A stretch of 64,000 nt of DNA from a virus (Duplodnaviria > Caudoviricetes). Position numbers and translations under genes: made by a program. Of the stretch, positions 8,082 to 63,083 are shown piece after piece. Every line of letters starts with the position of its first letter. The first letter of the stretch is position 1. The DNA is taken from positions 8,853-72,852 of the IMG/VR virus record IMGVR_UViG_3300037400_003271; one strand, 5' to 3'. The notes below the pieces were generated by a model that saw only the letters and a program-made list of their open reading frames with translations, made no database searches and was not told the origin of the DNA.

Positions 8082-11000
8082 ATGATACCGGCCATCACAG
8101 AAGTCAATTTTCCGTCCTACGCGACTTTACATCAGGCAACCGTATCCCTTCAGGATATGGGTGACCGCGTTATTACCACGCAGGTCCGCATTGACGGAGA
8201 CATTGTTCCAGACTTCTCCGGCTGGGAGCTCAGATTCAAGGGCGAGCGTTTCGTCCTCCCGAGCGACAACCCGCAGGCGTCGAAAGACAACACTACAAGG
8301 AATTCTATTGTCGACCTGCAGTTCCAGTCATGGGCTATACAGGAGCTGAAGCGCTATTACTTCTTCGAGGCCGCTTCGGTTTCTGCCGGCGTGGCGATCG
8401 CCGATAAGTATATCGCTCCTGTCCGGTTGAACGTCGAGGACTTTGTCGCGTTGCTGAATCAGGTCCTGCAGTATTACTTCGGCGGGAAGATCGTGGCCGA
8501 CCTGTATCTTTCAGGAACCGGCATCTATTCGCAGGAGCCGAAGGCCATAGACATCAACTACTCTTACCTGTGGGATGTCATCGGGAAGATTTTCGAGATC
8601 TACGGCGTGCGAAACAGGATCGAGTACGACGCGTCCAGCGACGTGTACACGATTAAGATCAACTATCCGGCGCCGGAGATTTCCGACCACGATTTCGAGT
8701 ACGGCTACCAGGGCGGATTGCTGAAGTTTGAGCGTCAGGTCCAGGACGAAAGTTTGTCGAACATCCTGCTTGGCCGCGGAGGTACGAAGAACCTGCCGTA
8801 CAGATATTTCAAGAAGGTCGACCCGCAGAACCAGGAATGGGCCGCAGATCCGGACGCCATCCCTGAACTTGCCAGCATTTACTTCGATCGGCTTCACGAC
8901 ATCAACTTCCGTTGGTATGTTCGCGGCTGGATGCACAACCCGAACCGCGATACGAGCGGTGACGAGGCGTGGGATCCCGGCCACGTGTTCCCGACATACG
9001 AGATCTCCTCCGACTCTCCGCACTACTGGGCCTACCAGAAGGGCCTGACTGACGAAACATTCTCGCCCGTTGAGTATGTCAAGGATGACGACTCGATCGC
9101 GGCATACGGAGAGCACTGGGGCGCGCTTGACGACAACGATGATGTGTACCCTACCATTCAGGGCCGCAGCCGTTCCGGTATCGGACGGATTGACGAGGTT
9201 GTCGCTGTATCTCCGATAATTACCGACGATATTGACGCTATGTCGGAGGCGGCCTCTATAGAAAAGAGTATAGACTCGCTTGTAGTAAGCGTATACGCCA
9301 ACAACAGGACCCAGTTTGAGATAGAGTCCAAACAGTTCACTATTCCGGCCGGGTCTGTCGGGAATATCACATATACTCCGCTGTCGAACGAGACGGTTTT
9401 CCCGAATTTCGTGAAGTACGACACGGAAAACACAAGACTTGTCGCGGTTCCTATAAGCGGCGGCGCCGAGATTCCCGCAACCGGAATCCCCGCTGGGACA
9501 TATCGATTGAAGTTGTATCTCGTCCTTTCGGTCGAAAGCCCCGCGTCTGTCGCGACCGGCGACTTTGGCATAGAGAACATCGTGCTCACGATGACAGCTC
9601 AGGACGAAAACGCCTGGAAGCCTACATTCGACATCTGGGTGAAGGACATCTGGGGGACGTCGCGGCAGCAGGGAGAGACAGACGAGCAATACTCCGAACG
9701 GGTCTGGGGGCCTATTCTCGGCGACCGCGCAGGAAACGAGGCGAAGGTGGCCTTTTCGACCGGCTTCATGGCATCGTCTTCCGACTACGAATTCGTGATT
9801 GCGTCCTATCCGGTTCCTGACACCTCGAAATCGATTGGCGGCGTCCAGTCCGCGTGGCGCATAACGCTTCGCAAATCCGACGCAGAGTTCGATGCTACGG
9901 GTCTGTATATCCCAAACGCGACAACAGGAGGGAAGCCTGTGGCTGGCGACAAATTCTTCTTCACCGGGATCGACATGCCGCACGCGTATGTGGAGATGGG
10001 AGAAGAGGAGCTCAGTACGGTAAAGTCCGGAGAACTGCAGGGCACGGCCACGGTAAACCCGACTTGGATAATATCTCTCGACAAGGTACGAGTCAACACG
10101 CTCGAGGCCGGAGAGTTTGGGCAGACGCTTGCCGACAGACTGGCCGCTGGCGCCAAGCTCCGGGTCACAGACCCGCGGTTCTCTGGCGGAGATGTGCTGA
10201 TTCTGCATGCGCAGTCCATCACATACACCTGGAACGAGCCGACGGACGACAGTCCGTACATCGTCCCGGATATTGAGGTCGTCCTGTCCGACAAGGTCGT
10301 GTCTCGAGAGAGCAGGCAGGACAAGATCGAGTCTTCTGTCGAGCAGATAAAGGCGCAGTACGCCAGGCTTGATGCCGTCGAGTCCGTAGTCAGAATGGTG
10401 GCCGAGCCGCTCTTCCTGAAAAAGACGGGCGAGAGCGATTCTTCGGCATCTCCGACCCAGTTCTCGAGCAAGGTGTCTTCTAAGGGCTTCCGGCAGGGCG
10501 GCGTAGGCGGCTCCGGCTGGGGATTCTATAAAGATAACACGGACGAACTCGCAGAGGGAGAAATCGGCGATGGGGATACCGTTCTCGAGGTTGACAGGAT
10601 GGTCGTCCGCAAGGGCCTTCAGGTGAACAGCCTCGTCGTGAATCAGGTTGAATACCGCGGTGGTATGGAGGTGATCTCTGCGGCAAAGATAGAGATCTCG
10701 AAAGTCATAGAGACCAATACTCGGTATATCTGCTATTTCGACCAGCGCAAGAACAGTATCGCGAACAACTTCCAAGTCGGCGACATTGCTTACGGGCAAG
10801 TCTTCACGCCGCAGAACGCAACGCTTCGCTACTACAAGTGCAAGGTCGAGGCGGTTGACATAGACCGCGTCGAACTCTCGAAGACGGTGAAGGACGGATC
10901 TGGCGTTCCTCAGGCCGGAGACATCATCGTCCAGTACGGCAGTTACACGGACGCCGCCCGCCAGTATGTCATCGTCCGTGATGTTATTGGCGGAGGCTAT

Positions 11001-23193: not shown

Positions 23194-23481
23194 CTATTCC
23201 TCCACATTAGGTTCGATGAACTCGATGTCCATATATTCGCACATATCCTCAAAGGAACCGAAGCGCTTTGACCCCGGGAAATAGGCGCAAAATTCAGCGC
23301 CGTAACACCAGAAAGCATATCTGCCGTACTCATTCTTTTCTCCCCTACAAATCTCTCGGTACGGCTCGTTCTTGGCAACGTTCCACCCATTATTAACGAT
23401 GCACACAACTGGGCCTCCCTTATCCAGCAGCTCCTTGAGCCGCTTGTAGTCCTTTGATGTCTTGTAGTTCAGCTTGCTCAT
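23194..23481 (-). CDS. hypothetical protein
   Basis: MSKLNYK start in ATGA overlap with upstream stop. Confidence 0.6.
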   Translation of the reverse strand: MSKLNYKTSKDYKRLKELLDKGGPVVCIVNNGWNVAKNEPYREICRGEKNEYGRYAFWCYGAEFCAYFPGSKRFGSFEDMCEYMDIEFIEPNVEE

Positions 23482-48913: not shown

Positions 48914-49266
48914 TGCGGTTCAGGGAATTCTATGTGGTCGCCACCGACGTGGAAACCGGATTCGAGGAGTGGTTCCGGACCCTCAAGCAGGCCGGCGCTG
49001 CGTGCGGCGCCAGCGACGACGGGATAGAGCGCGCGATCCGCTTCGGCCGGACCATCCTGTACTGGCGCTTCAGGAAAGCGCACGTGCGCTACCTGATCGT
49101 CAGCCGCACCGGACAGGAGGTCGTCTGCAGGTACGATCCGGAAAGGAAGGTGCTCGTCAGCGTCGACGGCGGCATCGAGTTTGGGAAAAGGCAGTACAGG
49201 AGCTGCGAGGAACTGATAGTTGAAAAAGATGGGAGTCTTCAGCGTAGACAGGCCGGAACGGCGTAA
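48910..49266 (+). CDS. NUMOD1-like HTH protein, paralogue C2
   Basis: MMRFREF start in ATGA overlap; DVETG..EWFRTLKQAGAACGASDDGIERAI. Confidence 0.65.
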   Translation: MMRFREFYVVATDVETGFEEWFRTLKQAGAACGASDDGIERAIRFGRTILYWRFRKAHVRYLIVSRTGQEVVCRYDPERKVLVSVDGGIEFGKRQYRSCEELIVEKDGSLQRRQAGTA

Positions 49267-49720
49267 GAAGGTGCCGGGCTACGGCGGCCGCTACGAGGTG
49301 AGCGACCTCGGGCGGGTGTACTCGGGCGGGTTCGAGCTGACGCCCGTGCTCGGTCGGTACGTGTACCTGCACGACAGGGGGCAGGCGGACCGCGCGTCCG
49401 TGTGCTACCTGGTGGCGAGGGCCTTCGTGCCCAACCCGGAAGGGCGGCCCTTCGTGCGGCACCGGAACGGTATGGCCGGGGACAACCGGGCCGAGAACCT
49501 GGAGTGGGTGGAGGCGAAGGAGCGCTGCGGCCAGCCCGTCGGCCGGAAGGGCGTCTGCAGGAGTGTGGTGGCGTACGACCGGGAGACCGGCGAGTTCGTC
49601 GGAAAGTGGGACAGCGTGAAAAATGCGTCCGAGGCGCTGGATGTGGCACGGTGTTTGATACGTAACTGCGCAGAGGGAAGAGCGAGGAGGGCGAAAGGAT
49701 ACGTGTTCAGATATGTATAA
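49229..49720 (+). CDS. NUMOD4-HNH-NUMOD1 protein
   Basis: KVPGYGGRYEVSDLGRV; VRHRNGMAGDNRAENLEW; AYDRETGEFVGKWDSVKNAS. Confidence 0.8.
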   Translation: MGVFSVDRPERRKKVPGYGGRYEVSDLGRVYSGGFELTPVLGRYVYLHDRGQADRASVCYLVARAFVPNPEGRPFVRHRNGMAGDNRAENLEWVEAKERCGQPVGRKGVCRSVVAYDRETGEFVGKWDSVKNASEALDVARCLIRNCAEGRARRAKGYVFRYV

Positions 49721-49892
49721 AGAAAAAGGAACAGGAAGAAGCAAGGAAGAGGCCCGCAGGCGGGCTGAGGAGGCGCTGAAGGAGCGTCTCTGGAGAGAGT
49801 GCTGGAAGGAGGCGATCGAGGTGCCGCGGGATGCTGTCGAGCATGTGGTGGCGATCGAGGGTGGACTTTTCGAAGTAACTATAGAGATATGA
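49713..49892 (+). CDS. small hypothetical protein (59 aa)
   Basis: MYKEKGTGRSKEEA...; ATGA-coupled to MazG gene. Confidence 0.5.
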   Translation: MYKEKGTGRSKEEARRRAEEALKERLWRECWKEAIEVPRDAVEHVVAIEGGLFEVTIEI

Positions 49893-50215
49893 TTTCATTG
49901 GATGATTTTCAGCGGGGCGCTCTGGAGACGGCCGTCTATCCGGAGCAGCATCGGGTGATCTACCCGGCCCTTGGTCTCGCGGGCGAGGCCGGCGAAGTGG
50001 CGGACAAGGTAAAGAAGGTCCTGAGGGGCGACGGCCCGCTGGACGAGGAGCGGAAGAAGGCGATAGCGCAGGAGATCGGCGACGTGCTGTGGTACTGCGC
50101 GGTGCTGGCCAGCGACCTCGGGTTCGGCCTCGAGGAGATCGGGTCGATGAACTACGCGAAGCTGCACAGCCGGAAGGAGCGCGGGATGCTCGGAGGGGAC
50201 GGAGATGATAGATAG
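49889..50215 (+). CDS. mazG: MazG-like nucleoside triphosphate pyrophosphohydrolase
   Basis: LGLAGEAGEVADKVKK...EIGDVLWY...NYAKLHSR. Confidence 0.85.
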   Translation: MISLDDFQRGALETAVYPEQHRVIYPALGLAGEAGEVADKVKKVLRGDGPLDEERKKAIAQEIGDVLWYCAVLASDLGFGLEEIGSMNYAKLHSRKERGMLGGDGDDR

Positions 50216-50242: not shown

Positions 50243-50503
50243 ATGACAATGGAAACAAAGTATTCGATTTGCGACAAGGTCGCGTTTTTCAACACGACGG
50301 AGCGTAAGGTGCTGACCGCGGAGGTCAAGGGTATCCAGATTGTTCCGACTGGGATCAGCAAGAACGAGAAGGGTGAGAACGTGCTGGACGGCTACGTCGT
50401 CCTGTACCAGACCTTCGACGGCCCGATCCTCGCGGAGTCCGAGTGTTTCGACAGCGAGGAGGCGTGCAAGGCGTTCTACCGGGACTTCTTCAACAAGGAG
50501 TAG
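50243..50503 (+). CDS. hypothetical protein
   Basis: METKYSICDKVAF motif. Confidence 0.65.
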   Translation: MTMETKYSICDKVAFFNTTERKVLTAEVKGIQIVPTGISKNEKGENVLDGYVVLYQTFDGPILAESECFDSEEACKAFYRDFFNKE

Positions 50504-50670
50504 TAGCATCGGGTTTCCGGCGTTAAGGCGGGGGTGCCCGGCCGCGCACACCGTCAAGGGTAGGTCCGGAATATGGCAGGCGCCAGCCCGAGGATAGTTT
50601 GTGTGGCGTCGGCCGGATCAAAGCGGGCCGGAATAAAGGACATACCGCAATTCCGGGCAGCGGCAGACAG

Positions 50671-50752
50671 AGTGTGGTAGCTCAGTGGACAGAGCGCCGC
50701 CCCAAGCGCATGGGGATCAACGGAGACGCGGGTTCGAATCCCGTCCACGCAC
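50671..50752 (+). tRNA. tRNA-like RNA with expanded (27-nt) anticodon arm; no assignable anticodon
   Basis: acceptor GTGTGG/CCACGC, D arm GCTC/GAGC with GG, T arm GCGGG-TTCGAAT-CCCGT. Confidence 0.75.
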
Positions 50753-50770
50753 AGAGAGATCTTTGAAATT

Positions 50771-51124
50771 GGGGCTGGTTTGGTTTAGACTTGCATGAGG
50801 CAGGTACTGACTTACGCACTGGGCGGTGATCCCAGTTGAATAAAGCACCGAAAACACAAAAGGCAAGAATTTCATCAGCAGGATGGCGGGCAAGGCTCGT
50901 GCTCTGCGCGAAAAGGTCGCCGGGATCTTCGCTCCCCGCGAGATTGAAGAGTTCGCTCTGGCGATTGCCTAATTTCTCGGCTTAGGAAAACCGAGTGGTG
51001 GAGATGGGCAGTGAACTTCTGTCCTGACCGTCCTGGAGCCGGACAAAAATGGCTATCCTAAGCGTATGAACAAAGTCAGTATGGGCACATGTATAGGACG
51101 AGGGTTCGACTCCCTCCAGCTCCA
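50771..51124 (+). ncRNA. ssrA: tmRNA
   Basis: GGGGCTG/CAGCTCC-A acceptor with G3.U70; T arm GAGGG-TTCGACT-CCCTC; helix 2; pk1 (ACTGGG/CCCAGT, CGGTG/CACCG); tag frame 50862-50972 ending FALAIA*. Confidence 0.93.
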
Positions 51125-51329
51125 CAAAGGCAGTGAGGTATGCCCTATAGGGAACAACATTGGACTTGCCGTACAATAGTGCTTAGGAATCAAGTGCTAT
51201 GCCCAATGCCCGAAGAACCTGGTAGCGCAGGTCGCTGCAAACATATCGTCCCGCCGTGAGGCGCGAGCGCAGGCGCGAGTACATAGTGTCTTAGTGTATT
51301 AGTTCCCCGGGCCGCCTGACCGGGATTCT

Positions 51330-51401
51330 GGGAGGGTAGCTCAGAGGTAGAGCGGGCGCCGAGGGGCGCGAAGGCCGGCGGTCCGAATCCGCCCCCTTCC
51401 A
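51330..51401 (+). tRNA. tRNA-like RNA with Ala acceptor identity and mispaired anticodon arm
   Basis: GGGAGGG/CCCTTCC-A; D arm GCTC/GAGC; T arm GGCGG-TCCGAAT-CCGCC. Confidence 0.75.
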
Positions 51402-51499
51402 CACAGGAAGCGCAGTGATGCGCGGTGTAAACGGAGGATTTGCCATATAGTGAACTGGATAGTTATTGCTGATGGCCGTGTTCTTCCGTGCGGCCACAT

Positions 51500-51574
51500 A
51501 GCGGGGTGGTGAACCGGTAACACGCGAAGCCCCATGTACGCATCGAGAAGCAAGTTCGATTCTTGCCCCCGCAA
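51500..51574 (+). tRNA. fMet-like tRNA-shaped RNA with 21-nt anticodon arm
   Basis: GCGGGG/CCCCGC acceptor with 1:72 mismatch; T arm GCAAG-TTCGATT-CTTGC; CAT in a 15-nt loop. Confidence 0.7.
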
Positions 51575-51668
51575 CTCTATGAAACGGACAGCAGCATACG
51601 GCGTCAGCAGGACGCGGGATGCCAGGGGCGTGTCTTCTGGAGATATATCCCGAAGAAACCGGGCAGGA

Positions 51669-57160: not shown

Positions 57161-57485
57161 GATCGCGCACGACGACCCCGGCCCGTTGCACCTTGACTTC
57201 ATCGTGCTTCCGGTCGGGTATTCGTACAACGCGGACATCAGAGAGGCGAAGAGTGGAGACATAATCCGCCTGGCTGATGGTACGACCGGAGTGATCTACT
57301 CCGTCCGCGTAGTTGATATGAAGAGGCCGGCCGCGGACCTGCTTTGCAGGATCCGGTACGGCATCTCGCTGAAGGGCGCGCTTATGCGCTGGCGAATAAA
57401 TGCAAGGCTGGAAGGGCACGGAGAGAAGGCTGTCAGTGAAGATGAGTGTCTGTGGGTAATCTATTCCAAGGATGAACAAGATTAG
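57120..57485 (+). CDS. hypothetical protein
   Basis: ORF; start uncertain. Confidence 0.6.
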   Translation: MSCQTLKRQTKIFRIAHDDPGPLHLDFIVLPVGYSYNADIREAKSGDIIRLADGTTGVIYSVRVVDMKRPAADLLCRIRYGISLKGALMRWRINARLEGHGEKAVSEDECLWVIYSKDEQD

Positions 57486-57771
57486 TGCGAAATACGCGGA
57501 GTACGTGCTACTCCCGAAGGAGGAGGTCAGCGGTATCGTCGCCGGCCCGTTCCGCACGCTTGACGACAAGGTGTGCGAGGCGACTTTCATTTCCGGATGG
57601 GACAACCGGGACGGGAGGTACGACGAGCAGCTCGACAAGGTGTGCAGGAAGTATTGGGGCGTCGGATTCTCTACCGTCAAGTCCCTCTGGCACGAGAGGC
57701 GGTGGGAGATTGAGGGGTACTGGTACCTGTTCAACCTAAGGCTTTCCACGGCGGCAAAAGGCGCCGCATAG
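57472..57771 (+). CDS. hypothetical protein
   Basis: ORF overlapping upstream gene. Confidence 0.6.
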   Translation: MNKISAKYAEYVLLPKEEVSGIVAGPFRTLDDKVCEATFISGWDNRDGRYDEQLDKVCRKYWGVGFSTVKSLWHERRWEIEGYWYLFNLRLSTAAKGAA

Positions 57772-57779
57772 ATGCTTTT

Positions 57780-57897
57780 GTCGGAGTAGCTCAGATGGTA
57801 AGAGCGGCAGAGGGAGGGTTGCGATATTCCCGAAGTGGAAGCATAAATCCCGATAGGCCCGTTTCTGTAGACGCCGGTTCGAGTCCGGCCTCCGGCT
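57780..57897 (+). tRNA. tRNA-shaped RNA with a 52-nt insert replacing the anticodon loop
   Basis: 7-bp acceptor GTCGGAG/CTCCGGC; D arm; anticodon stem GCAGA/TCTGT; T arm GCCGG-TTCGAGT-CCGGC. Confidence 0.85.
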
Positions 57898-57898
57898 C

Positions 57899-59380
57899 AT
57901 GGAATTACGGAAATACCAACAGACGCTGATTGACGAGGCCAGAACAGCCCTGTCGAGACACAAGCACATCATCGTACAGTCCCCAACCGGAAGTGGGAAA
58001 GGCGTCTTGATCGGTTCAATGGCCTCTATGTCTCGATATAGGGTCCTAATTCTCGCGCACAGCGAGGAGATATTGAGCCAGGACGCCGGCCACGCAAGGA
58101 AGTGGGGGATCGATGCTGCTGAGGTTCTCGCGAAGACGAGGAAGCTGCCCGACGCGAAGTGCTGCGTGATGATGGCGCAGACGCTCCGGCAACGCCTCAA
58201 GAAGGAGGACTGGTCGGCCTGGTTCGACTCCTTCGGTTTCATCATCCTGGACGAGTGCCATCGCGCCGAGATGGATTTCATCTTCGAGCGGCCCGGCGTC
58301 GATAGTACCTTTGTCGTCGGCCTGTCCGCTTCGCCGGCCAGATATGGCCAGATGCGCCAGTTCGGTCTTGACTACGGCGCCGTCGTGATCGGGCCGCAGG
58401 TAAAGGAACTGATTGCCGGCGGATACCTGTGCCGCTGCCGCCTGTTCTCTCTTGACGCGCCGTCCCTCACGGACGTGGAGTGGTCGTACGGCCGCGGAGA
58501 CTACAACCTCTCGCAGATGGCCGCGAAGTTCAAGTCTCGCGCCCGCTATGTCGGCGCCGTCGAGAACTACAAGAGGATCTGCCCTGGCGAGAAATGCCTC
58601 GTTTTTTGCTGCTCGAGCGAGCAGACGATAGAAGTTACCAAGGCGTTCTGCGAGGCCGGAATTGACGCGCGCTATTGCCTCTCTGGAGACTTTGACGAGG
58701 ACGAGGAATACAGCGGCGACCGCAAGGACGTCGTCGACGCGTTCGCGCGCGGAGATTTTCAGGTTCTGGTGAATTTTGGCCTGTTCACGACGGGCGTGGA
58801 TATACCAGACATTAAGGTCGTGATGCTGATGTTCTCGACTATGTCTCTTGTGAAGTATCTGCAGTGTCTCGGCCGCGCCAGTCGGCCGGCGCCAGGGAAA
58901 AATGGCGAGTTCATATGTCTGGACTTCGGCCGCAACTACGAGCGGCTGGGCCGGTACGAGGATGATCGCGAGTGGTCTGTCTGGCATAACACCGGCGCCG
59001 GCGGTGGTCCGGCACCCGTGAAGGAATGCCCGCAGTGCCACAAGCTGGTGCCTGTATCCTGGACCGATTGCCAGTTCTGCGGGTATCATTGGCCCAGCAA
59101 GCAGGAGACATATGTTGCGGACCTGCAGGAGATAGCGGCCAAAAACGAGTTTGAAACCGTCGAGGGATATGTGTCCAGAATGAAACTGCTCGGAAAGAAC
59201 ACGAACTGGATCCTCGTGAACGTGTGCCTCAGGAACGATACCGATATGAAGGGGGCGTTTATGAAGGCCGCAAAGGTCCTTGGGTTGAAGCCTACGTATT
59301 GGAAATTTTTTAAAATGAACATTCTCGACAAGGCCAAGGTTAAGCAAAAAGACGGTACTTGCGGGCCAGGCCTCTTCTGA
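57899..59380 (+). CDS. SF2 (DEAD/DEAH-like) helicase with C-terminal zinc finger
   Basis: QSPTGSGKG, ILDECHRA, GLSASP, TGVDIP, QCLGRASR, CPQC...CQFC. Confidence 0.9.
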   Translation: MELRKYQQTLIDEARTALSRHKHIIVQSPTGSGKGVLIGSMASMSRYRVLILAHSEEILSQDAGHARKWGIDAAEVLAKTRKLPDAKCCVMMAQTLRQRLKKEDWSAWFDSFGFIILDECHRAEMDFIFERPGVDSTFVVGLSASPARYGQMRQFGLDYGAVVIGPQVKELIAGGYLCRCRLFSLDAPSLTDVEWSYGRGDYNLSQMAAKFKSRARYVGAVENYKRICPGEKCLVFCCSSEQTIEVTKAFCEAGIDARYCLSGDFDEDEEYSGDRKDVVDAFARGDFQVLVNFGLFTTGVDIPDIKVVMLMFSTMSLVKYLQCLGRASRPAPGKNGEFICLDFGRNYERLGRYEDDREWSVWHNTGAGGGPAPVKECPQCHKLVPVSWTDCQFCGYHWPSKQETYVADLQEIAAKNEFETVEGYVSRMKLLGKNTNWILVNVCLRNDTDMKGAFMKAAKVLGLKPTYWKFFKMNILDKAKVKQKDGTCGPGLF

Positions 59381-59408
59381 CGGCACGATATTTGCACGGG
59401 AAGCGGGT

Positions 59409-59939: not shown

Positions 59940-61133
59940 ATGATTGAGATTAAGAGAAATATCGGCTCTCCGGTGAAGGTTTTCGCCGAGACTTTCGAGT
60001 ACGAGGCTTACGACCAGGTGAAGGCGCTGGCCAACTATTCTCCCTATGCTGATTCGACCATCCGGATTATGCCGGACGCACATGCCGGCAAGGGCTGCAC
60101 TATCGGCACCACGATGACTCTGCACGGAAAGGTCACGCCGAATCTTGTGGGCGTGGACATCGGATGCGGTATGCTCGTGGCGGAACTCGGTTCAAGGATT
60201 CGCCCGGACTTCGCCAAGCTGGATGCGGCTATCAAGGCTGGCATCCCGTCCGGCTTCGGAATCCACGAGTCTCCGGTCGTCAAGTTCCCGATGCTTGACC
60301 TGCTCCGCTGTGGTCATGCCGTCGATCTGTCCCGTGCCGCCTGCTCCATTGGCTCGCTCGGTGGCGGGAATCACTTCATCGAGCTGGACGTGAACGAGGA
60401 GACCGGCGGGTATTACCTTGTCATCCACTCCGGCTCCAGGAACCTCGGCGTGCAGGTCTGCAAGTATTATCAGGACCTCGCCTACAAGAAACTGAATGAG
60501 ACCGGAGCGGCCAAGAATGAAATCGTCAAGAGACTGAAGGCTGAGGGCCGTGAGAAAGATATTCAGACTGAGCTGAAAAAGTTCCAGAAGCCACCGTGCA
60601 ATAAGGAGCTGGCCCATCTCGATGGCGCTGACTTCGATGACTACATCGCCGACATGAGGATCGTGCAGCGGTATGCTTCCGTGAATCGCTCTACGATGGC
60701 CGGGTTTATCCTGACCGCTATGGGGTGGAATCCGAAGGGCTACTTCGAGACCATCCACAACTACATCGACACCGACGCGATGATACTTCGCAAGGGGGCG
60801 GTCCGCGCTAATGCCGGCGAGAAGCTCATTATCCCGATGAATATGCGTGACGGCTCGCTGATCTGCGTCGGCAAGGGTAATCCGGACTGGAACTACTCGG
60901 CCCCGCACGGCGCCGGCCGACTGATGTCCCGTGCTAAGGCGAAGGAGACGCTTTCGCTGGATGAGTTCAAGAGCACGATGTCCGGTATCTATTCGACCAC
61001 CGTCGGCAAAGGGACCATCGACGAGTCGCCGATGGCTTACAAGCCGATGGATGAGATTATCCGGTGCATCGAGCCTACGGCCAAGGTGTCGGAGATTATC
61101 AAGCCTGTTTATAATTTTAAGGCCGGAGAGTAG
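59940..61133 (+). CDS. rtcB: RtcB-family RNA 2',3'-cyclic phosphate/3'-phosphate-5'-OH ligase
   Basis: MPDAHAGKG, VGVDIGCG, GSLGGGNHFIE, HSGSR, HNY, RKGA, PHGAGR, ESPMAYK. Confidence 0.95.
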   Translation: MIEIKRNIGSPVKVFAETFEYEAYDQVKALANYSPYADSTIRIMPDAHAGKGCTIGTTMTLHGKVTPNLVGVDIGCGMLVAELGSRIRPDFAKLDAAIKAGIPSGFGIHESPVVKFPMLDLLRCGHAVDLSRAACSIGSLGGGNHFIELDVNEETGGYYLVIHSGSRNLGVQVCKYYQDLAYKKLNETGAAKNEIVKRLKAEGREKDIQTELKKFQKPPCNKELAHLDGADFDDYIADMRIVQRYASVNRSTMAGFILTAMGWNPKGYFETIHNYIDTDAMILRKGAVRANAGEKLIIPMNMRDGSLICVGKGNPDWNYSAPHGAGRLMSRAKAKETLSLDEFKSTMSGIYSTTVGKGTIDESPMAYKPMDEIIRCIEPTAKVSEIIKPVYNFKAGE

Positions 61134-62490: not shown

Positions 62491-62691
62491 ATGAGACCTG
62501 AATTCGAAGGATCGCCGCTTGAGTACGCGAAGAGCCTCAAGCCGCAGGAACTGAAGAAAGCCATCGCCTCATGCAAGAAGGGCGCCTACGACGAGTTTGC
62601 TGACCGATGCCGCGTCTGCTTTGAGCAGTTTGCCGCAGGTAATGTCGAGCAGGCGGAATGGTGGAGCAATCACGCCGAACTCGTAAGATGA
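62491..62691 (+). CDS. hypothetical protein
   Basis: ORF after promoter. Confidence 0.6.
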   Translation: MRPEFEGSPLEYAKSLKPQELKKAIASCKKGAYDEFADRCRVCFEQFAAGNVEQAEWWSNHAELVR

Positions 62692-63083
62692 TTCAGGACA
62701 CCCAGCCGCGGCCGATCAAGAGGCAGCACAAGCAGCCGGAAGCCATTATTCAGGCTGCATGCGTGAAGTGGCTGTGGAACGAGCGGCCGGAGACCCGCGG
62801 TCTGTTCATACACATCCCGAACGAGGGGAATCGGGCAGACAGCCGGGACGGCGCGCTTCGCAAGGCGCTCGGCCTCGTGGCCGGCGCCCCGGATACCTTC
62901 CTGTTCATCCCGCGCGGCCGCTATGCCGGTCTTGCGGTGGAGTTCAAGACGGAGGTGGGCACACAGAGCCTGGAGCAGAAGGCTTTCCAAGCGAGACTCG
63001 AGAAGAACCACTACCGATACGAGATCTGCAGGTCTCTTGACCAGTTTCAGAAAATAATTACAGAGTATTTATGCCAGGATTGA
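62688..63083 (+). CDS. VRR-NUC domain nuclease
   Basis: EAIIQAACVKW; HIPNEG; GLVAGAPD; AVEFKT...Q...Q. Confidence 0.85.
   Translation: MIQDTQPRPIKRQHKQPEAIIQAACVKWLWNERPETRGLFIHIPNEGNRADSRDGALRKALGLVAGAPDTFLFIPRGRYAGLAVEFKTEVGTQSLEQKAFQARLEKNHYRYEICRSLDQFQKIITEYLCQD

Follow-up and report, generated by a model that had tools for sequence, protein, structure and literature searches.

What is an RNA with the outline of a transfer RNA (tRNA), but no anticodon to read with, doing one base ahead of the start codon of a helicase gene in a rumen phage? The question is raised by positions 57780-57897 (plus strand) of a 64,000-nucleotide (nt) stretch of viral DNA, referred to herein as the window, which covers positions 8,853 to 72,852 of the IMG/VR virus record IMGVR_UViG_3300037400_003271 (Duplodnaviria; Caudoviricetes). 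The record is a complete virus of 72,852 base pairs (bp) with direct terminal repeats, of which the window is a part, and its DNA was found in bovine, goat and sheep gut metagenomes; a search of phage GenBank with positions 57400-59400 as the query returned no match. The element spans 118 nt, from acceptor stem to discriminator base, and its scaffold is clearly under selection at the RNA level. Our preferred reading, which we hold with about as much belief as doubt, is that it acts as a portable tRNA-like processing signal for RNase P and tRNA 3'-end maturation, and that its removal would leave the helicase messenger RNA (mRNA) leaderless or nearly so.

A tRNA scaffold without a decoding arm

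The body of the element is that of a decoding tRNA, with a 7-bp acceptor stem, a D arm, a T arm and the conserved tertiary bases (Table 1), and with G1-C72, U2.G71 and C3-G70 as the top pairs of the acceptor. With the Rfam tRNA model (RF00005), the element reached 48.4 bits, where the gathering score is 29 (E 2.8e-7 over the whole window), and the alignment shows '[52]', that is, 52 unaligned bases, where the 7-nt loop belongs. A covariance model built in this analysis (R1) gave it 97.3 bits, and at E<=1 no Rfam family other than tRNA was found within 57700-57980. ARAGORN misses the element at its default settings and finds it in intron mode only. An earlier note, made from the letters alone, had placed the acceptor, D arm, anticodon-type stem, insert, T arm, discriminator, helicase start codon and RtcB gene; all of these positions were right. 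The RNA as a whole folds no better than shuffled sequences (z -0.91).

The anticodon is what the element lacks. It lacks the 7-nt loop of a decoding tRNA, with U33 and a purine at position 37, and no anticodon is shared by its orthologues; the intron mode of ARAGORN places arbitrary intron sites and returns anticodons for Gly, Thr, Ala, Leu and Phe across them. CCA is not encoded, the trailer reading T-C-A-T-G. Upstream, a 99-amino-acid (aa) open reading frame (ORF) has its stop codon at 57769-57771, with the element beginning 8 nt after that ORF, and the small hairpin within 57741..57779 has a folding energy of -14.2 kcal/mol (z -1.2). Downstream, the N-terminus of the helicase (MELRKYQQ) aligns with the first residues of its homologues.

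Orthologues were gathered from IMG/VR relatives of the helicase (59-77% aa identity) and by pattern scans, which yielded 14 distinct orthologous elements from related rumen phages, and the scaffold statistics are taken from the alignment of these 14 (A1). Paired cells make up 97.7% of the scaffold. Changes on both sides are seen in 7 of 16 scaffold pairs, and none of 500 shuffles or slid registers was as good. Further, U8, A14 and T54-T55-C56-R57-A58 are invariant, the D-loop GG is retained in 13 of the 14, and the tertiary 15:48 pair covaries, being G-C in 10, A-U in 2 and G-U in 2. The region that varies lies between positions 26 and 44 and is different in each lineage, where the rebuilt anticodon arm always forms a closed hairpin and in no orthologue has a 7-nt loop with U33. 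By this alignment, the elements are a family of non-decoding tRNA-shaped RNAs in which the anticodon arm alone varies freely, as it could if a processing role had no need of that arm.

Two departures from the regular scaffold were seen within the family. In L006 (3452-3569) and L025 (2345-2462), one base of the acceptor 3' strand has been lost, which shortens the acceptor/T stack from 12 bp to 11 bp; in L057 and L060, the D stem is weakened (ACTA/GAGC). With respect to ancestry, the exact full-scaffold pattern had no match in 185,579 species genomes, and a looser pattern with the same acceptor 5' strand found, as its nearest matches, Lys, Arg, Val and Phe tRNAs with discriminator A from scattered phyla, so that neither a donor tRNA nor a host could be identified in this way. 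A tRNA-shaped sequence on a contig of a bacterial metagenome-assembled genome (CAZKPI010000036.1; L115:6800-6871) has the same acceptor 5' strand and D arm and a long non-canonical anticodon region; the bin is that of an uncultured bacterium, and the sequence could be a similar element carried by a prophage.

Three known classes of RNA were considered as candidates for the element and rejected. A group I intron would need more than about 200 nt with P1-P9, against the 52 nt of the insert, and Rfam finds tRNA only at E<=1. In a YrlA or Y RNA, the ends form the Ro60-binding stem, whereas here they form an acceptor stem, and there is neither a TROVE/Ro60 gene nor an Rfam Y RNA match. The tRNA-like domain of a transfer-messenger RNA (tmRNA) would carry G3:U70 and an mRNA-like reading frame and would lack a D stem, whereas this element has C3-G70 and a full D arm, and the real tmRNA of the phage lies elsewhere.

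A candidate processing signal

By our alignment, the element is shown to keep all the features by which tRNA end-processing enzymes would recognise it: a 7-bp acceptor on a 5-bp T arm, a D-loop/T-loop elbow, a U-rich leader and a CCA-less trailer. Directly before base 1, the window and 12 other members have a run of U residues, and a U-rich 5' leader suits RNase P. The base after the discriminator is C in 13 family members, as it is in the tmRNA of the phage and in two genuine tRNAs, tRNA-Met and tRNA-Leu, of a related phage (G004), which share CCA-less 'N73-C-A' trailers. Because the tmRNA and these genuine tRNAs lack an encoded CCA, the host must mature CCA-less ends. The element has the shape of a tRNA and no working anticodon arm, and it has no promoter or terminator of its own in the sense that no sigma-70-type promoter-like or terminator-like site was found between the upstream ORF and the helicase, in a scan that does not cover Bacteroidota-type promoters.

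The placement of neighbouring genes is also in line with 3' processing. For four different genes, the next ORF starts 1, 4, 5 or 6 nt past the discriminator, always with ATG and with no room for a leader. Specifically, these genes are the helicase in the window, a Dam type 1 methylase in L006, L025, L029 and L031, a Dam type 2 methylase in L035, and a 342-aa ORF in L034 and L060. Where the gap is 15-17 nt, in L002 and L007, the leader is A/U-rich. The helicase also has an extreme upstream sequence for this genome. Among 62 non-overlapping ORFs, leaders are A-rich (37% A in -20..-1, versus 23% genome-wide), and a Shine-Dalgarno-like 4-mer is found upstream in 13%, versus 15.6% of random 16-mers; the phage genes do not use Shine-Dalgarno sites. 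The 20-mer upstream of the helicase, in comparison, is the most GC-rich among the 62 genes (15 G+C, 1 A), because it is the 3' half of the tRNA-like RNA. The proposal in the earlier note, that 3' processing would create an almost leaderless helicase mRNA, gains support from this comparison, through both the four closely abutting gene starts and the GC-extreme leader. A-rich leaders without Shine-Dalgarno sites are typical of Bacteroidota, and leader composition alone suggests a Bacteroidota-like host for this phage.

In the mechanism that we propose, the 118-nt module would be transcribed within a rightward early/replication operon, and host RNase P would cut at 57779/57780, releasing the upstream message. 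RNase Z, or an equivalent, would cut at or next to the discriminator (57897/57898), so that the helicase mRNA would then start with C-AUG or AUG and be translated in a leaderless or near-leaderless manner; without the 3' cut, a GC-rich structured leader would cover the helicase start codon, in a phage whose other genes have A-rich, unstructured leaders. In relatives, the portable module heads cassettes, carrying DNA methyltransferases and other genes, that are inserted before the helicase, and it often comes after other structured non-coding RNAs, the 3' ends of which would be defined by the RNase P cut.

A variable slot before the helicase

Comparison of loci indicates that the element is accessory and sits in a hotspot. 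The closest relative of the window (L066) shares 95.9% nucleotide identity over the 2.3 kb upstream and 89% over the helicase. Its homology ends at 57740 and resumes exactly at the helicase ATG at 57899. In place of the module, L066 (2404-2500) has an unrelated sequence of 97 nt that folds into a long hairpin with a 13-bp closing stem (-30.8 kcal/mol, z -2.35), and an A-rich 11-nt leader follows before the ATG. Because this hairpin replaces the tRNA-like module, the slot can be seen as one that holds alternative structured RNAs. Of 21 distinct helicase relatives, counted by hand from locus tables, roughly 7 have, by R1 and a motif scan, a tRNA-like element no more than about 1 kb ahead of the helicase.

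The earlier note had made its proposal depend on conservation of the insert and of the position before the helicase. The slot upstream of the helicase (0-730 nt) is indeed conserved, while the insert is kept in a subgroup only and gives way to unrelated hairpins of 10-60 nt in other orthologues, the abutment to the helicase is not kept, and L066 is without the element. In relatives, different genes fill the space between element and helicase, namely Dam-type methylases of two kinds, a probable C5-methylase, an HNH endonuclease and ORFs of 64 and 342 aa, all named by their N-terminal motifs alone. The window-type element itself recurs in DNA contigs of independent metagenomes, bovine and goat, with an identity of about 97-98%, and one contig with this element (from run X4) diverges after 57901 into an L003-type flank that leads to an HNH gene. 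Given this divergence and the varying cargo, abutment to the helicase is not conserved even within the lineage.

A short sequence relic was also seen around the slot. In L003 (3080-3105), the conserved upstream ORF has the 21-nt string AAGGCTTAGTGTAACAGGGTA at its 3' end, yet in L005 (794-893) and in L028 this string lies downstream of the element. Read from the sequences, the relic points to cassette shuffling, probably by short-homology recombination at the 'CAAG' trailer.

The type A insert

In the window, L006, L025, L057/L063 and L060, the type A insert has an identity of 85-96%, versus 68-88% for the surrounding scaffold, and the scaffold of this subgroup shows several compensatory changes. 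The irregular hairpin that the earlier note drew for the insert (GGGTT/AATCC, GC/GC and TTCC-CGAAGT-GGAA) can be drawn, but it is not established as a fold, its helices being near-invariant. Specifically, in the five type A sequences, the proposed helices have one U-A to U.G change, one pair that is broken in four of the five, and no compensatory change, and RNAalifold of the same five gave neither a defined insert fold nor covariation within the insert. A search of the phage genome for an antisense target gave a longest exact match to the insert of 11 nt, equal to that of shuffles. Outside the tRNA scaffold, a 16-base insert pattern yielded mostly chance matches in coding DNA, and a stricter gapped pattern recovered known members only. 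Because the insert is conserved above its scaffold, the released RNA may also act in trans.

Alternative explanations

Several points weigh against a processing signal. The element is dispensable, being absent in L066 and present in only about 7 of the 21 helicase relatives. The type A insert is more conserved than its scaffold, which a pure cutting signal would not predict, and a complete D arm and tertiary core are conserved, although RNase P and RNase Z need less. In addition, the processing ends are predicted from sequence alone, leaderless translation in the presumed Bacteroidota-like host is an assumption, and Bacteroidota-type promoters are left out of the promoter scan.

The conservation of the insert leads to the main alternative, akin to the cargo idea of the earlier note, which we consider possible but somewhat unlikely. 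In it, the RNA, once released, would act in trans as a stable mimic of a tRNA; the tRNA body would give processing and stability, and the variable arm would do the work, as a protein-binding aptamer or as a decoy or sponge against a tRNA-directed host enzyme or a defence nuclease. The cargo would then differ from phage to phage, and processing would still occur, with any effect on the helicase message being secondary; the two readings are compatible with each other. Such a role would fit a type A insert that is conserved above its scaffold and that independent metagenomes, bovine and goat, share at about 97-98% identity, an accessory element beside anti-restriction-type methylase cassettes, a fully conserved L-shape core, and a phage that has several paralogous anticodon-less tRNA-likes together with tmRNA, MazG and RtcB. 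It is harder to reconcile with those orthologues whose 'cargo' is merely a 3-5-bp stem with a tri- or tetraloop, with the lack of covariation behind any defined insert fold, or with the 11-nt antisense match, which is not above chance. It also lacks a co-occurring partner gene (Ro60, EndA, PTH2 and a CCA-adding enzyme were sought in the complete phage and not found, nor is RtcB conserved), and it leaves the abutting start codons unexplained. A broader and rather unlikely version would have the family as a rumen-phage tRNA chassis, that is, a portable scaffold processed by RNase P and RNase Z, with interchangeable cargo (type A perhaps being an anti-defence decoy or aptamer), that would also launch the next gene leaderless. 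If true, it would be a natural counterpart of engineered tRNA scaffolds and tRNA-guide RNA arrays.

The remaining explanations concern the DNA itself, the history of the gene and splicing. The exact resumption of L066 homology one base past the element, the divergence of the X4 contig after 57901 toward an HNH gene, the varying cargo behind the element, and the relic of the upstream ORF found downstream of it in L005 and L028 could all be taken to mean that the element is mainly a recombination hotspot or boundary for the exchange of methylase and HNH endonuclease cassettes, as tRNA genes are for integrating elements. We regard this as improbable; compensatory pairs and tertiary covariation show selection for an RNA fold that a DNA site would not need, a search of the complete phage found no tyrosine integrase, and the left junction falls 40 nt short of the element on its upstream side and not at it. 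That the element is a decaying, functionless pseudogene of a tRNA gene acquired by an ancestor is very improbable. It cannot decode, only some relatives have it, and the D stems of L057 and L060 and the acceptor 3' strands of L006 and L025 are impaired, but decay should strike all arms, whereas 97.7% of scaffold pairs are kept with compensatory changes and the anticodon arm alone has been rebuilt as a closed hairpin; near-identical copies, moreover, persist in several independent metagenomes. A true intron-bearing tRNA, from which the 52 nt (or 45 nt of them) would be excised and the halves joined by the phage RtcB, is scarcely credible, although Rfam aligns a tRNA with an anticodon-loop insertion and an RtcB gene lies 2 kb downstream. 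Reading the sequence, no split of the 52 nt, and no pair of cuts, gives a 7-nt loop with U33, and there is no bulge-helix-bulge at 57807-57868, where the sole 3-nt bulge (GTT, 57861-57863) faces GGG/CCC with no staggered partner. The insert is too short for a group I intron, with Rfam reporting tRNA only, and orthologues have tetraloops or unrelated inserts and no common anticodon. A search of the complete phage for the EndA splicing endonuclease (PF01974) was negative, and none of the eight other phage records searched had RtcB. RtcB-less records that carry the element include G001 (100% complete) and G002 (93%), both with the element at the same site as in the window phage, and G005 (100%, with terminal repeats), which has the same type A insert. 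The link to RtcB and splicing at which the earlier note had hinted does not survive these observations.

Neighbouring RNAs and genes

In eight loci (L002, L006, L007, L029, L034, L035, L057 and L060), a conserved structured RNA lies directly 5' of the element; it is absent from the window. Its first domain measures about 80 nt, has GCCGCCG/CGGCGGC as its closing stem and includes GGAGTGCACTAACGGCGGCG. The second, in which AUCGGUGCG/CGCACCGAU encloses a core of 80-100 nt that varies, is present in all eight except L007 and L057. The two domains fold with z -2.5 at L006:3255-3451, and around the L006 upstream modules Rfam at E<=1 found tRNA only, with no match for either domain.

In the window phage, a tmRNA and three further anticodon-less tRNA-likes sit in an ORF-free island at 50500-51600 (Table 1). 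Arrays of this kind, with tRNA-shaped units among other RNAs, are the arrangement expected if such units act as punctuation. The tRNA-like at 51330 carries the alanine identity elements G3:U70 and A73, with a GAGG tetraloop in the place of the anticodon loop. Just upstream of the island are genes for an HNH/NUMOD homing endonuclease (49220-49720) and a MazG pyrophosphohydrolase (49799-50215), and a VRR-NUC nuclease gene lies at 62658-63083.

Related complete phages contain tRNA-shaped RNAs with rebuilt anticodon arms as well. One in G003 (C1:22486-22604; L045:2486-2604) has a rebuilt anticodon region of 70 nt, two in G001 (C1:22886-22968 and 23237-23315) have loops of 17 and 13 nt, and G002 has a form of 106 nt (C1:46719-46824; L042:6719-6824). 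In G004 (C1:49386-49936), rebuilt-arm tRNA-shaped RNAs stand beside genuine tRNA-Met(CAU) and tRNA-Leu genes.

Table 1. Features of the element, its surroundings and the anticodon arms of its orthologues (window coordinates)
Feature	Position	Strand	Details
Left part of inserted module	57741..57779	+	Last 31 nt of the 99-aa ORF with small hairpin, then U-rich CTTTT leader
Acceptor stem	57780-57786 / 57890-57896	+	7 bp, one U.G
U8 A9, then D arm	57789-57805 (D arm)	+	With GG
Anticodon-type stem	57807-57811 / 57864-57868	+	GCAGA / TCTGT, 5 bp
Type A insert	57812-57863	+	52 nt in place of the 7-nt anticodon loop
Variable region		+	AGAC, 4 nt
T arm	57873-57889	+	With TTCGAGT
Discriminator	57897	+	T
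C74-equivalent base	57898	+	C; sole base separating discriminator from start codon
Superfamily 2 (SF2) helicase gene	57899..59380	+	493 aa; Pfam ResIII 2.9e-18, Helicase_C, DEAD
RtcB RNA ligase gene	59940-61133	+	Pfam RtcB 6.2e-62
tmRNA, full-length	50771-51127		Rfam 67.9 bits; G3:U70; CCA not encoded
Three anticodon-less tRNA-likes flanking the tmRNA	50671-50752, 51330-51401, 51500-51574		
Anticodon arm, window, L006, L025, L057/L063, L060			52-53-nt type A insert
Anticodon-arm replacement, L002			GGC-AAAA-GCC
Anticodon-arm replacement, L032			5-bp stem, GCGA tetraloop
Anticodon-arm replacement, L035			AAA triloop
Anticodon-arm replacement, L034			6-nt loop
Anticodon-arm replacement, L029			10-nt loop
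Anticodon-arm replacement, L003, L007			Hairpin common to both, 32-nt insert
Anticodon-arm replacement, L005, L028			Two unrelated hairpins, about 50-60 nt

Comparison with known systems

Plant mitochondrial t-elements, which define mRNA ends, and the 'tRNA punctuation' of mitochondria (PMC1920247) resemble the phage element as non-decoding tRNA shapes in polycistronic transcripts, where cuts by RNase P and RNase Z create mRNA 5' and 3' ends and the freed mRNAs are often leaderless. They differ in being organellar and, in many cases, degenerate, whereas the phage element is accessory and portable and has a perfect tRNA core, with cleavage here only predicted. The mammalian mascRNA/MALAT1 and MEN-beta systems (bioRxiv 10.1101/2024.10.22.619594) likewise have a non-functional anticodon arm and an element behind a structured non-coding RNA, and there the RNase P cut makes the 3' end of the upstream RNA and releases a small tRNA-like RNA. 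Those, however, are nuclear long non-coding RNAs with no downstream translation, whereas a phage ORF starts 1-6 nt after the element.

Modified tRNA bodies that are processed and stabilised by the tRNA machinery are a further point of likeness. In the tRNA-microRNA units of the gammaherpesvirus MHV68, a tRNA body is directly followed by another RNA. In the engineered tRNA scaffolds of Ponchon and Dardel from 2007, the anticodon arm was reportedly replaced by foreign RNA for the production of recombinant RNA. The scaffolds are artificial, however, and MHV68 is a eukaryotic virus, whereas in the phage family many members are without cargo and the function of the cargo is putative.

Among bacterial RNAs, YrlA and the Y RNAs (PMC4201824) likewise mimic tRNAs without decoding and have T and D arms; they occur in both bacteria and phages, in some cases near rtcB. 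In M. smegmatis, the tRNA mimicry of YrlA includes an acceptor stem of 7 bp, and in vivo the RNA is cleaved by RNase P and acquires CCA (PMC4201824). Compared with the phage element, YrlA is circularly permuted, its 5' and 3' ends forming the Ro60-binding stem and its acceptor being closed by a loop (PMC4201824), and it is defined by Ro60 binding and an adjoining Ro60 gene, whereas the phage has no Ro60 gene and its element matches tRNA only in Rfam. The intron-containing tRNAs of archaea and eukaryotes (PMC4090602) are similar in having extra sequence in the anticodon-loop region of a cloverleaf and in the nearby gene for an RtcB-type ligase. The phage element differs in that it has neither a bulge-helix-bulge nor a conserved anticodon, no excision would leave a canonical loop, the phage has no endonuclease gene for it, and relatives with the same insert lack RtcB. 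The tRNA-Other of Bacillus cereus (PMC3399842) is, similarly, a pseudo-tRNA with no working role in translation; it nevertheless has a phenotype, and it is associated with a mobile island; unlike the phage element, it is a single chromosomal gene that retains its anticodon arm and has no abutting ORF.

Implications for phage biology

In the literature searched, tRNA-style punctuation was described only for organelles and mammalian long non-coding RNAs, and none was found for phages, while surveys mention unclassified 'tRNA-like' candidates in phage metagenomes (PMC10690425). Elements such as the one described herein are missed by ARAGORN and Rfam or labelled as odd or intron-bearing tRNAs, and such mislabelling inflates phage tRNA counts. 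If the predicted cuts are real, they would amount to tRNA-style punctuation in a bacteriophage, separating messages and setting the ends of non-coding RNAs, and accessory and replication genes would be launched as leaderless mRNAs in a host without Shine-Dalgarno use. As a natural experiment, moreover, the family can help to tell the tRNA parts that only decoding requires from those that processing requires.

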